IMG/VR virus record: IMGVR_UViG_3300028510_000022
Direction: 5' to 3' (one strand)
Length of the DNA: 18,976 bases
Source: a virus
Positions 217 to 18,760 of this stretch are shown piece by piece. Positions within the stretch are counted from its first letter, which is position 1. The number at the start of each line of letters is the position of its first letter. The notes below the pieces were generated by a model that was not told the DNA's origin, did no database searches, and worked only from the letters and a program-made list of their open reading frames with translations. The position numbers and the translations under genes were made by a program.

Positions 217-245
217 TTGACAATTATTTCTGTATATGATATACT
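217..245 (+). promoter_or_regulatory. Inward early promoter inside the left ITR (TTGACA, 17-nt spacer, TGaTATACT)
   Basis: TTGACA lies at 217-222, the spacer is exactly 17 nt, TATACT lies at 240-245, and an extended -10 TG lies at 237-238. A phased A-tract 22-mer sits upstream at 184-205. Confidence 0.7.
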
Positions 246-3335: not shown

Positions 3336-3726
3336 TGGTTTTGTATGTTTGGTTTATCGTTCCTTTTTCAAAAAATTATTACAAACGCAACAGGTTAAAA
3401 ATAAAAAGGGTTATTACTTTCAAAAGTCTAGCAATGCACCTAAAAACATCATCTTTTTAAAATCGTTTTTAAAGGCTAATTATGCTTACGAAGATTTTAA
3501 CTACATCATGGCGCTTTATCAATTTGTTTCAAAAGAAATTGATAAAATTTCAATCAATGCTTTTTACAACCTATGCACCTATTTAGAAGAAAAACAAATC
3601 TTTGAATTATCTTCTAATTCTCTTTACGATTGTTACGAGAAATCAAAAAATCGTGAAAACGATTTAGAAAATCTTAATACAATCATCGCACCACTTAAAT
3701 TTTTAAAATCAACAAATGGAGAATAA
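3292..3726 (+). CDS. Hypothetical early protein (144 aa)
   Basis: The ORF overlaps the polymerase 3' end by 44 nt. An AAGGGGG site lies about 11 nt upstream of the ATG at 3292. I recognise no motifs. Confidence 0.55.
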   Translation: MKQPLKSENQTILFDGFVCLVYRSFFKKLLQTQQVKNKKGYYFQKSSNAPKNIIFLKSFLKANYAYEDFNYIMALYQFVSKEIDKISINAFYNLCTYLEEKQIFELSSNSLYDCYEKSKNRENDLENLNTIIAPLKFLKSTNGE

Positions 3727-3730
3727 ACAA

Positions 3731-4243
3731 ATGGCTAAAAAACAAGCAAAGCATGAAAATTTTGACACAGTAGTTGCTCAAGCAACTATCACAGCAACAT
3801 CAAACAAATCAGACGGCAAGTACAAGCAAAAGAAAGCTACTAAAGCCGTGTACCTTGTCCCAGCAACTGAAGAAGACGCTAAAAAGTTGACAGACTTTGG
3901 TCTACAACTTTACACACCAGACACGGAGAAAGACCCAGACGCAAAACCTTACTTTATTGTGAAAGCTACTGAAAATGTGAAAATCTTCACAAGTGAAACA
4001 GACTTTGAAGAAGTGAACTTTGGGGTATCTTATGAAGGTGTGAACCCAGAAACAGGGGAAATCACAGTCAAGAAGACCCCTAACTATAAAACAGAAACTC
4101 CTGTACACGTTGCTATCATGTTTGTAGAAGGTGGCGACAATGGAAATGACTTTTTCCGTCTCAATGCTCTCATGATGGAAGACGTGCTAACACTTGAAGA
4201 AGTGCAACCCGTGAATCCTTTTGCTGAATTGTTTGGAAAATAA
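3731..4243 (+). CDS. Hypothetical early protein (170 aa); an ssDNA-binding or DNA-binding role is possible from position only
   Basis: A GGAG site at 3718-3721 sits 9 nt before the ATG at 3731. The alternative ATG at 3716 has no RBS. This is the last gene of the left early operon. The functional guess rests only on analogy with the phi29 early gene set. Confidence 0.6.
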   Translation: MAKKQAKHENFDTVVAQATITATSNKSDGKYKQKKATKAVYLVPATEEDAKKLTDFGLQLYTPDTEKDPDAKPYFIVKATENVKIFTSETDFEEVNFGVSYEGVNPETGEITVKKTPNYKTETPVHVAIMFVEGGDNGNDFFRLNALMMEDVLTLEEVQPVNPFAELFGK

Positions 4244-4270
4244 AAAAGCGCCTTCCTAAAGGAAAGCGCC
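4242..4270 (-). terminator. Intrinsic terminator for the minus-strand small RNA
   Basis: On the minus strand the sequence reads GGCGCUUUCC-UUUA-GGAAGGCGC followed by UUUUUU. The single imperfect position is a G-U wobble on the minus strand but a C-A mismatch on the plus strand, and only the minus strand has a U-tract. Confidence 0.75.
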
Positions 4271-4390
4271 AATTATAAAGCGTTTTTTCATGGTTTAAAA
4301 AGTCAGTTGGTTAGAATGACTTGCACCGATAAGCACCCCTTAAGGTGTAACCATCTTATCAGCACTAGTTAAACCTTGAAAAGCCTTACA
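4243..4390 (-). ncRNA. Candidate pRNA-like packaging RNA (about 148 nt)
   Basis: The unit is bracketed by a consensus promoter (4397-4425, minus) and the terminator at 4242-4270, and it has no ORF. The predicted fold has a 5'/3' helix (4369-4383 pairing with 4285-4298). A bulged hairpin follows (4326-4333 pairing with 4355-4362, with an inner stem at 4334-4347). A second hairpin has stems at 4301-4305 and 4317-4321. The bulge GGUUA (complement of 4348-4352) is complementary to the loop UAACC (complement of 4309-4313). Confidence 0.6.
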
Positions 4391-4396
4391 ACTTTT

Positions 4397-4425
4397 ACTA
4401 TATCATACTTGATTTATTTTGTCAA
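4397..4425 (-). promoter_or_regulatory. Promoter of the small RNA (TTGACA, 17-nt spacer, TGaTATAGT on the minus strand)
   Basis: On the minus strand, TTGACA is the complement of 4420-4425, the spacer is exactly 17 nt, and TATAGT is the complement of 4397-4402 with an extended -10 TG. Confidence 0.7.
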
Positions 4426-4437
4426 GTATGATATACT
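4409..4437 (+). promoter_or_regulatory. Late-operon promoter (TTGATT, 17-nt spacer, TGaTATACT), overlapping the divergent small-RNA promoter
   Basis: TTGATT lies at 4409-4414, an extended -10 TG lies at 4429-4430, and TATACT lies at 4432-4437. It shares the ATGATATAnT core seen in the ITR promoter and at 14573-14582. An RBS and the scaffold gene ATG at 4466 follow. Confidence 0.6.
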
Positions 4438-4465
4438 TTTGTTAAAAAATTGAAAGGAGAGGGCT

Positions 4466-4756
4466 ATGACCTCACTAGAATGTTTAGAAATTCTAAACAA
4501 TGCAATTTCTAAAGTCGGAAACGATGAAGAAATTGAAAGCCTAACAACAGACTTGATGGACATCAAGAATTTTGTGGGCGAAGTTGATTTAACCGTCTCA
4601 GTCTTGAATGAAGACGTTGAGCGCTTAAACAAGAAAAACGGCGAATTACGTTCAGCTAATAACGAACTATACCGCCGTTTAGGGGCGCAAGATGAAATCA
4701 TGAAAAAGGCTAATGAAGACATGAGCGTAGTATCAGCAATCAATGCTGTTATTTAA
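4466..4756 (+). CDS. Scaffolding protein (phi29 gp7-like), 96 aa
   Basis: This small coiled-coil protein is encoded just upstream of the capsid gene. The segment ANNELYRRLGAQDE resembles phi29 gp7 SNSKLFRQIGLTEK as I recall it. phi29 gp7 is 98 aa. Confidence 0.65.
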   Translation: MTSLECLEILNNAISKVGNDEEIESLTTDLMDIKNFVGEVDLTVSVLNEDVERLNKKNGELRSANNELYRRLGAQDEIMKKANEDMSVVSAINAVI

Positions 4757-4774
4757 TAGAAAGGAAAAAGGAAA

Positions 4775-4999
4775 ATGAAACAGTTTTCTAAAAATATTAA
4801 CTGGTATCCAAACAACACGCTTGAAGCGTTAAAAGATGAACCAGAAACAGTCGCAGAAGTGACACCACCAGCAACCATGCCAGCTGACACACCAGCGCAA
4901 GAAGTGCCAAACTACCCAGCGCAAGCCCCAGCTACTGAAGTCGAGGGCGTAGAAATGAACATCAACCACGAAAACGTGGTAGAAGAAGGAGAAGAATAA
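4775..4999 (+). CDS. Hypothetical acidic Pro/Ala-rich protein (74 aa)
   Basis: The ORF has an RBS (AAAGGAAAAAGGA) and lies between the scaffold and capsid genes. Its low-complexity PA-rich centre gives no functional assignment. Confidence 0.55.
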   Translation: MKQFSKNINWYPNNTLEALKDEPETVAEVTPPATMPADTPAQEVPNYPAQAPATEVEGVEMNINHENVVEEGEE

Positions 5000-5001
5000 A
5001 G

Positions 5002-6099
5002 ATGGCTAATAAAATTACCACTTTTTTATCAAACACCACAGGCAAGAACATTTCAAACATTGACCTATTGAACTCTATCCGCACCCGTGCAAGTGCTGAC
5101 TATCAGGCTGATATTCCCGTGCTTGAAGGCGCACGAATCAACCATGCAACCGTACCCTATCAGGATTTTGAGAAACACGCAAATGAGTTTTTTAAAGCTC
5201 TTGTAAATCGTATTGGTTCAACTGTTATCAAAGCCCTTACTTATGAAAATCCACTAGCTATTTTCAAGTCTGAAACGTTTGAGTTCGGGGACACATTGCA
5301 AGAAATCTATGTACACCCAGCTGATAAGAAAACTTATGACGCTAAGTCAGACGTCAGCCCGTTCAAGTTTGCAGATACTAACATTGAAGTATTCTATCAC
5401 ACTTTGAACAATGAAAACTATTATGAGCGCACTTTTGAACGTGCTTGGATTCAGAAAGCTTTTGTTTCTGACATGGCTTTTGATGAATTTGTAGATAAGA
5501 TGTTTACATCTCTTTTGTCATCAGACACGCTGGACGAGTATCAAGCTATCAAGGGCGTACTTGAGAAATCACTTGCTGAAGTTTCTTACACTGACCTTAC
5601 AGGAACAACTAAGAAAATTACAGTAGCTGGTACTAAGATTGACGAAACAAAATCTGATTTTGTGGTAGACTTTAACCAATCACTAATCAATCAGTCTAAA
5701 CGCTTTACAATTCCAAGCCGTACCCAATTTAACAACCCAGTGGGTGTACCTAACATGACGGCTATTGAAGACCAATACCTAGTTATTTCAGCAGAATTTT
5801 CTACCCATCTTGATATGTTACTTGCTAACGCTTTCAACATGGACAAGGCAAGCGTGCTTGCTCGCACTATTGTAGTTGATGATTTTGAAAAATTCACAGG
5901 TGCAGGTGCAAATAATGGACGTAAGCCAGTTGCTTTCTTGATTTCTGCTAAGTCTATCATTAACAAAGATAAACTAGTACACATGGAATCAATCCGTAAT
6001 CCACGTAACATAACCTACAATTATTTTTACCATCACCACTATTTGACTAGTCTCTCACTTTTTGAGAATATTCATTTCTGGTATGTGGAGGAAGCCTAA
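5002..6099 (+). CDS. Major capsid (head) protein, 365 aa
   Basis: Position, size and a strong GGAG RBS support the call. It is followed by a strong intrinsic terminator, as expected for the most abundant late product. The synteny scaffold-capsid-portal matches phi29 and Cp-1-type phages. Confidence 0.8.
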   Translation: MANKITTFLSNTTGKNISNIDLLNSIRTRASADYQADIPVLEGARINHATVPYQDFEKHANEFFKALVNRIGSTVIKALTYENPLAIFKSETFEFGDTLQEIYVHPADKKTYDAKSDVSPFKFADTNIEVFYHTLNNENYYERTFERAWIQKAFVSDMAFDEFVDKMFTSLLSSDTLDEYQAIKGVLEKSLAEVSYTDLTGTTKKITVAGTKIDETKSDFVVDFNQSLINQSKRFTIPSRTQFNNPVGVPNMTAIEDQYLVISAEFSTHLDMLLANAFNMDKASVLARTIVVDDFEKFTGAGANNGRKPVAFLISAKSIINKDKLVHMESIRNPRNITYNYFYHHHYLTSLSLFENIHFWYVEEA

Positions 6100-18637: not shown

Positions 18638-18666
18638 ATTATATCATTTCACAAAACCCTTGTCAA
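18638..18666 (-). promoter_or_regulatory. Right early promoter (TTGACA, 17-nt spacer, TGaTATAAT, full consensus) straddling the ITR boundary
   Basis: On the minus strand, TTGACA is the complement of 18661-18666 and lies inside the ITR. The spacer is 17 nt. TATAAT is the complement of 18638-18643 and lies in unique DNA, with an extended -10 TG. Confidence 0.8.
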
Positions 18667-18731: not shown

Positions 18732-18760
18732 AGTATATCATATACAGAAATAATTGTCAA
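18732..18760 (-). promoter_or_regulatory. Inward early promoter inside the right ITR (mirror of 217..245)
   Basis: Sequence identical to the left copy: TTGACA is the complement of 18755-18760 and TATACT is the complement of 18732-18737. Confidence 0.65.

Follow-up and report, generated by a model that had tools for sequence, protein, structure and literature searches.

A prohead RNA-like gene on the minus strand between the early and late operons of a Cp-1-like streptococcal phage

The DNA considered here is IMG/VR virus record IMGVR_UViG_3300028510_000022, a stretch of 18,976 nucleotides (the whole of which is called "the window" below) representing the nearly complete genome of a Cp-1-like pneumophage of the Cepunavirus group, alignable to positions 6-19338 of Cp-1 at 80-84% identity and carrying inverted terminal repeats of about 318 bp at its ends. 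Our subject is a small RNA gene situated between its left early and late operons. A reading of the letters without database searches (hereafter the sequence-only reading) had proposed at this place a self-contained minus-strand RNA resembling the prohead or packaging RNA (pRNA) of phage phi29. The analysis confirms the observation, namely a minus-strand unit devoid of any open reading frame (ORF) whose predicted RNA folds as described, and it supports the pRNA-like interpretation; by analogy with phi29, we consider it probable that the interval encodes a prohead RNA-like molecule forming rings through the pairing of a bulge with a hairpin loop.

The ORF7/ORF8 gap and its transcription signals

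The gap separates ORF7 (3716-4243), the last gene of the left early operon, from ORF8 (4466-4756), which encodes the scaffolding protein and is the first late gene. It measures 222 nt and is non-coding, as had been claimed: neither strand holds an ORF longer than 25 amino acids, and a coding reading was therefore dropped, while ARAGORN detected no tRNA or tmRNA in the gap. Its minus strand carries a promoter composed of TTGACA, a 17-nt spacer and TGaTATAGT (4425-4397), exactly where the sequence-only reading had placed it, with a score of 11/12 plus the TG in the promoter scan. Downstream, the hairpin GGCGCUUUCC-UUUA-GGAAGGCGCU (4270-4247) is followed by U6-A-U4. The imperfect positions of this hairpin are G·U if the minus strand is read and A·C if the plus strand is, and on the plus strand AATTATAAAGCG intervenes before any T run; it is thus a proper intrinsic terminator on the minus strand only, in agreement with the earlier claim. 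The promoter gives the inferred 5' end of the transcript, whose 3' end was placed within the U tract at 4246-4236. The elements of the unit are as follows:

4420-4425, minus strand: -35 hexamer TTGACA of the RNA promoter (promoter scan; kept by all clades of relatives except L095-L099, where it is weaker)
4397-4405, minus strand: extended -10 element TGaTATAGT (promoter scan and window-wide pattern count)
4241-4390, minus strand: predicted transcript of about 150 nt (fold, match of covariance model R1, no ORF)
4236-4270, minus strand: intrinsic terminator, with a stem of 10 bp (4270-4247) and the tail U6AU4
4399-4435, no strand assigned: inverted repeat, perfect over 14 nt, holding both the RNA promoter and the late promoter (promoter scan and repeat search)

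Promoters of this kind are rare in the window. The pattern TTGACA-N14-TGnTATAAT, with at most two mismatches, occurs at 4 sites in the 19 kb against 0.32 expected, a number reached in none of 200 shuffles, and the three sites other than that of the RNA are terminal early promoters, to whose consensus class the RNA promoter belongs. These near-consensus extended -10 promoters lie at 217-245 (plus strand), 18732-18760 (minus strand) and 18638-18666 (minus strand); two are identical, inward-pointing copies within the inverted terminal repeats, the third stands near the right end, and all three presumably serve the left and right early operons.

The promoter of the late operon (TTGATT-17-TGaTATACT, 4409-4437, plus strand) is divergent from the RNA promoter and overlaps it fully, so that two polymerases cannot occupy both at once, and the overlap of the two promoters within a palindrome could be a switch or operator. 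Among the relatives introduced below, clade L100/L101 keeps the palindrome with a different sequence, and clade L105-L115 carries two back-to-back TTGACA boxes 3 nt apart in place of the overlapping promoters. On the other side of the unit, the Cp-1 clade has one hairpin (window 4247-4270) between ORF7 and the RNA, which is a good terminator for the strand of the RNA only; in clade L105-L115 an extra, separate plus-strand terminator (CCCCUUAG...CUAAGGGG-U6) stands beside the RNA's own.

Fold, covariation and loop-loop pairing

The fold proposed by the sequence-only reading, namely a helix formed by the 5' and 3' segments enclosing a bulged hairpin and a second hairpin, was reproduced. The minus-strand segment 4390-4237 folds at -53.1 kcal/mol, compared with -31.5 +/- 3.5 for shuffled sequences (z = -6.2; 0/200 as good), and the minimum free energy (MFE) structure is also the centroid. 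The core, about 117 nt long, has the form of a three-way junction, in which the 5' and 3' ends build a terminal helix (about 21 bp), the first arm consists of 11 bp, a 7-nt bulge on the 5' side and a capped hairpin of 5 bp, and the second arm has a 6-bp stem closed by an 11-nt loop. In the bulged hairpin, GUGCUGAUAAG is paired with CUUAUCGGUGC around CACCU-UAAG-GGGUG. From 5' to 3' along the RNA, up to the closing strand, the elements and the support for each from the relatives are:

4369-4390, minus strand: 5' strand of the long terminal helix, analogue of the A-helix (MFE pairs; 8/9 pairs of helices 1 and 2 compensatory)
4355-4365, minus strand: 5' strand of the 11-bp helix below the bulge, analogue of the C-helix (helix 3; 11/11 pairs changed on both sides)
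4348-4354, minus strand: 7-nt bulge AUGGUUA, with GGUUA at 4352-4348 (at least 95% unpaired; co-varies with the hairpin loop)
4334-4347, minus strand: distal hairpin CACCU-UAAG-GGGUG, analogue of the E-hairpin (helix 5; 4/5 pairs compensatory)
4323-4333, minus strand: 3' strand of the C-helix analogue (compensatory changes)
4300-4322, minus strand: second hairpin AAGUCA/UGACUU, analogue of the D-hairpin (helix 6; 5/6 pairs compensatory)
4274-4298, minus strand: 3' strand of the terminal helix (MFE pairs, compensatory changes)

The complementary GGUUA bulge and UAACC loop that had been pointed out are both present, and each is at least 95% unpaired in the ensemble of the window RNA. UAACC occupies 4313-4309 within the 11-nt loop of the second hairpin (4316-4306), the accessibility of which is close to 1.0.

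Relatives were collected by exact-word and capsid-protein scans of IMG/VR, together with one metagenome scan, yielding about 90 contigs and 63 distinct versions of the RNA in six clades (contigs are designated by L numbers), whose capsid proteins are 69-99% identical to that of the window. When divergent capsid queries were run against IMG/VR in two further scans, the same contigs came back, indicating that this collection is exhausted, and the metagenome scan contributed one new variant (L134); contigs with capsid identities of 23-51% gave no match to the models. For 19 representatives, RNAalifold recovered the predicted fold, with compensatory changes in 18 of 31 pairs. Covariance model R1, which was built from these representatives with clades L100/L101 and L105-L115 left out of the seed, has a single match in the window (4272-4393, minus strand, 133.9 bits), and with E = 1e-7 to 0.06 it detects both unseeded clades, in the syntenic position on the same strand.

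Pair counts were taken from alignment A4, which contains 46 distinct sequences. In it, 97.4% of the pair cells are standard pairs and 30 of the 36 pairs have changed on both sides; none of 500 shuffles reaches the observed values, and sliding the partners lowers the paired fraction to about 40%. The structure is thus selected and not accidental, and the covariance analysis across related phages that had been put forward as a check of the fold is positive. The transcription signals are retained as well: in all six clades a promoter and a terminator lie on the strand of the RNA, the former being of the sigma-70 type (usually TTGACA-17-TGnTAnnAT) and the latter a hairpin with a U run at the terminator site, the stem sequence of which differs among clades. 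In every clade the unit is found in the same genomic place and divergent from the scaffold/capsid operon.

The strand follows from the same alignment. When it is read as minus strand, 194 cells of the helices are G·U and 9 are A·C, and RNAalifold gives -31.8 kcal/mol for the sense alignment versus -14.8 for the antisense, with a structure conservation index (SCI) of 0.81 versus 0.41. This asymmetry and the energy comparison establish that the RNA is read from the minus strand of the window, as had been asserted from the terminator and promoter.

Variation of the two loops among related genomes had been named beforehand as decisive, and its outcome is positive: the bulge and loop 5-mers are complementary in 230 of 230 cells over the 46 sequences, with no mismatch, and fall into three Watson-Crick classes plus wobble variants (bulge first, then loop):

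GGUUA/UAACC: window, Cp-1, Cp-7 and relatives; L096
GGUAA/UUACC: L095, L097-L099, L102, L134
GAUUA/UAAUC: L100, L101, L103 and most of L105-L115
GAUUG/UAAUC (wobble): L108, L113, L114
GAUUA/UGAUC (wobble): L105

As the bulge and loop columns are unpaired in the covariance model, the alignment was not fitted to this complementarity. Double changes between the two loops occupy 12 cells, compared with 1.8 +/- 1.2 in shuffles, and 12 was reached in 0 of 500. The classes are interleaved on a tree of the capsid gene, implying at least four to five independent double substitutions. The clearest case is offered by L096 and L099, which differ at 4 of 150 positions, two of these four being the compensating bulge and loop bases. 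The wobble variants, moreover, are valid pairs on the minus strand only. The loop complementarity is therefore selected, like the helices.

Likeness to the phi29-family pRNA

To our knowledge, the pRNA of phi29 is the only known RNA forming part of a viral DNA-packaging motor. The RNA of the window shares its general setting, both being small non-coding RNAs of protein-primed, phi29-like podoviruses with a gp10 connector and a gp16 ATPase. Among the window proteins are a packaging ATPase (Podovirus_Gp16, PF05894, E = 6e-47), a gp10 connector (PF05352, E = 2e-129), a capsid protein (PF25622 Phi29_MCP, E = 2e-88) and a protein-primed DNA polymerase; the connector also matched phi29 portal structures. 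The N-terminus of this connector is a basic tail (MSYKNYKRHLGK), a feature consistent with a prohead RNA because the N-terminal 14 residues of the phi29 connector bind pRNA (Xiao 2005, as cited in PMC9965433).

The reference for the comparison was the Rfam family RF00044 (Phage_pRNA), which covers the Bacillus phages phi29, B103, M2/Nf, SF5 and GA-1. In its structure line, the phi29 pRNA consists of a terminal helix, an arm with the 5' bulge GAUUAAACC and a capped hairpin, a second hairpin with the loop UGGUU, and the return strand. The element order of the window RNA is identical from 5' to 3', and the sizes are close: 22 bp in phi29 versus 21 bp here for the terminal helix, 9 versus 11 bp for the helix below the bulge, 4 versus 5 bp for the distal hairpin, 6 bp in both for the second hairpin, and 118 versus about 117 nt for the core. 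In both RNAs an extra 3' domain follows the core, which here is the terminator itself. The sequence-only reading had given the phi29 loops as an AACC bulge and a GGUU hairpin loop and had described the present topology as the same with the loops swapped. The phi29 loops so given agree with the Rfam alignment, and the comparison bears the description out, since the same tetrads are used with their places exchanged, GGUU(A) being the bulge and (U)AACC the loop in the window.

There are also differences of detail. The loop-loop duplex has 5 bp here (6 in the window) against 4 in phi29, with predicted energies of -6.2 and -3.7 kcal/mol, respectively; the loop of the second hairpin has 11 nt instead of 5; and the junction linkers are 3/0/1 nt instead of 1/3/0. 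Regarding expression, the pRNAs of phi29 and GA-1 are transcribed from early promoters (A1 and A1b), and the window RNA promoter shares its consensus class with the three terminal early promoters. The pRNA gene of GA-1 is, like the window RNA, an internal unit away from the genome end, with its own promoter (A1b) and terminator (TA3).

If pRNA is taken as a functional class, defined by a terminal helix and three-way junction from which a bulged arm and then a second hairpin emerge in 5'-to-3' order, by a bulge-loop complementarity kept through covariation, and by a host phage with a phi29-type portal (gp10) and ATPase (gp16), all of these features are found here. Membership of RF00044, that is, of the phi29 family, is not, and "pRNA-like" is the right label. 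The scan with the Rfam pRNA model that had been suggested gave no match, even at E <= 10; the weak matches to other Rfam families (PyrG leader, DUF3800-I and others) were driven by the terminator, and none is credible. With matches missing in either direction, the resemblance to the Bacillus pRNAs is architectural and homology is not demonstrated; common descent is possible.

One observation concerns the distal hairpin. In the most divergent clade (L105, L108-L115 and L135-L137) it reads CGCA-UUGAGU-UGCG, with a 4-bp stem whose differences are compensatory, and its 6-nt loop UUGAGU equals the conserved E-loop of the phi29 family (phi29: L118 201-318; capitalized in the Rfam consensus); the window reads UUAAGG/UAAG at the E-loop position. 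Common descent may have left this identity, or a protein contact in common may account for it; it is a post hoc lead that brings no gain in model score.

A probable packaging RNA weighed against other explanations

According to the reading that we favor, host sigma-A RNA polymerase would transcribe a stable and highly structured RNA of about 150 nt leftwards and early in infection from its strong promoter, and the transcript would end at its own intrinsic terminator. The five bulge nucleotides of one copy would then pair with the five hairpin-loop nucleotides of another, linking copies head to tail; the ring so formed would be seated on the prohead's portal vertex, and the terminal helices would project outward and dock the gp16-type packaging ATPase. 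Pairing between molecules, binding to the prohead and a requirement for packaging are what we infer from the analogy with phi29. Given a phi29-like fold with loops that stay complementary across relatives, RNA-assisted DNA packaging probably exists outside Bacillus phages.

Several points weigh against this conclusion. The RNA gene is a prediction from sequence, and the covariation is equally compatible with intermolecular pairing and with an intramolecular pseudoknot. The shuffle statistics ignore phylogeny, and the count of independent events comes from a simple neighbor-joining tree of the capsid gene. The gene has its place between early and late operons and is convergent with the former, whereas that of phi29 is near the genome's left end. 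RF00044 has no match at its gathering score of 100 bits in the whole window, and none at E <= 10 in window positions 4000-4700 or in the most divergent clade (L105), the positive control phi29 scoring 145.4 bits; conversely, covariance model R1 gives no match on phi29, and R2, run with filters off, gives none at the pRNA genes of phi29, GA-1 and B103. Finally, the Lactococcus phage asccphi28, also a protein-primed, phi29-like podovirus, which infects a lactic acid bacterium and has a small portal and ATPase, has been reported without evidence of a pRNA, its ATPase forming rings alone (PMC7823558), in contrast with the pRNA-like gene of the Cp-1 group; a pRNA is thus not obligatory for this type of motor.

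The explanation that competes most seriously, although we consider it unlikely, accepts the same minus-strand RNA and turns the bulge-loop pairing inward. The RNA would be a compact monomer closed by an intramolecular pseudoknot, with a role other than packaging, for example as an RNA that acts on the early-to-late switch by regulation or by sequestering a protein, or as the scaffold of some other complex. The phi29 bulge-loop contact was itself first interpreted as an intramolecular pseudoknot. Covariation fits pairing within a molecule equally well, the two arms leave the junction without a linker between them and could lie side by side, and the overlap of the RNA and late promoters in one palindrome would suit a regulatory role. 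This reading, however, leaves unexplained both the match to phi29 in element order and size and the presence of a phi29-type connector and ATPase, and no target or partner for such an RNA is evident.

We regard as distinctly improbable that the transcript is mainly an antisense or transcriptional-interference device that insulates or times the two operons, its fold being secondary. The arrangement is suggestive, as the unit is convergent with ORF7 and divergent from, and overlapping with, the late promoter, and the Cp-1 clade has a single hairpin between ORF7 and the RNA. Nevertheless, such a device does not need a three-way junction, and yet 30 of 36 pairs have changed in a compensatory manner and the loop complementarity has been kept. 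In L105-L115, moreover, a separate terminator serves the early operon and the promoters do not overlap but lie back to back, and the RNA structure is still kept.

Existing database records point to the opposite strand. In Cp-1 (Z47794.1), orphan plus-strand -35 and -10 signals are annotated in the gap at 4699 and 4724 (span 4699-4729), and the Cp-7 record (LK392619) gives a different plus-strand promoter (4860-4891) and a "terminator" (5005-5033), which is the palindrome containing the late promoter. None of the five GenBank records compared has an annotated RNA feature. A functional RNA transcribed from the plus strand, as these signals imply, is very improbable, and we rejected it on the G·U/A·C counts and the SCI. 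Apart from the annotation of such signals in both records, its merits are that the plus strand folds well (-44.7 kcal/mol, z = -5.4) and that the palindrome is terminator-like on that strand. On the other hand, the promoters of the two records lie at non-equivalent sites and neither reaches the scan threshold in the window, where the spacer of the Cp-7-type promoter is 15 nt; the proposed terminator is the late promoter itself; the helices would hold 194 A·C mismatches, with the SCI at 0.41 instead of 0.81; and the arms would come in the reverse of the phi29 order, which is obtained from the minus strand only. The signals in the Cp-1 and Cp-7 records therefore sit on the strand opposite to the RNA. 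The gap features of these records are also mutually inconsistent, and in one place among their regulatory features, which in Z47794.1 include 973-978 and 996-1001, a -10 stands before a -35 on the stated strand. These Cp-1 and Cp-7 features look like unverified predictions.

The least likely explanation, namely that no functional RNA exists and the inverted repeats are DNA elements (such as binding sites for proteins, a terminator working in both directions, or signals for replication or packaging) at a palindrome-rich operon boundary, is hardly tenable, as a strand-asymmetric use of G·U pairs is meaningless for sites in duplex DNA and incompatible with a pure DNA-element reading, and as compensatory change runs across four nested helices and a pseudoknot, with a conserved promoter and terminator.

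Novelty and related loci

The idea of a pRNA in this group is not itself new. The sequence-only reading had mentioned an earlier proposal for Cp-1, and Hertel and co-workers (PMC6266182) indeed cite Martin, Lopez and Garcia 1996 (J Virol 70:3678) for it, so that, as far as this citation conveys it, the putative Cp-1 pRNA of 1996 concerns the same phage group and the same idea as the RNA of the window. Hertel and co-workers also reported that a covariance model of the phi29 type could not reliably find the Cp-1 pRNA (PMC6266182). A search of full-text literature, to which the 1996 original was external, revealed neither coordinates nor a strand for it, and a 2024 review describes pRNA as unique to phi29 and related Bacillus phages (PMC11476376). 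What appears to be new is the minus-strand gene model, the 63 variants in six clades, the covariation of both the fold and the loop contact, and the distinct loop classes.

A broader proposal, for which we see about even chances, is that Cp-1-type streptococcal phages possess a second pRNA family, whose sequences show no detectable relation to the first and in which an RNA ring would be assembled through a 5-bp bulge-to-loop code with at least three incompatible classes. RNA-scaffolded motors would then not be peculiar to Bacillus phages, the annotation of Cp-1 and Cp-7 would be on the wrong strand, and, together with the gap unit of Enterococcus phages described below, prohead RNA would be either ancestral or repeatedly acquired in phi29-like motors. 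For the packaging-motor field, the interest is that an old and largely forgotten suggestion about Cp-1 becomes precisely testable, and that pneumococcal and oral streptococcal phages would offer an independent system in which to study why an RNA ring is needed by some motors, the three natural loop classes serving as ready-made compensatory mutants. Besides, these classes may provide orthogonal building blocks for pRNA-based RNA nanotechnology, the annotation of Cp-1, Cp-7 and SOCP can be corrected, and the covariance model is usable to find the gene in metagenomes.

Two further loci deserve mention. In a human gut metagenome contig with a capsid protein 51% identical (L138, 1-500), three tandem TTGACT-17-TATAAT promoters stand at the contig end, upstream of and divergent from the scaffold gene, each -35 box lying in the loop of the preceding terminator hairpin; they delimit two short ORF-less units of 75-85 nt, which match neither R1 nor R2. 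Phi29-like phages of Enterococcus faecium show the same synteny (DNA polymerase, small ORF, gap, scaffold, capsid), and in phage vB_EfaP_2/Chl-5 (L236, PV455607.1) the gap is an unannotated interval of 267 nt (4572-4838). Its plus strand carries a promoter (TTTACA-17-TGnTAAAAT) and a hairpin with U7, which bound an ORF-less unit of about 155 nt; this unit, known from three near-identical records, folds at -46.2 kcal/mol (z = -3.05), with two hairpins enclosed by a 5'/3' helix.

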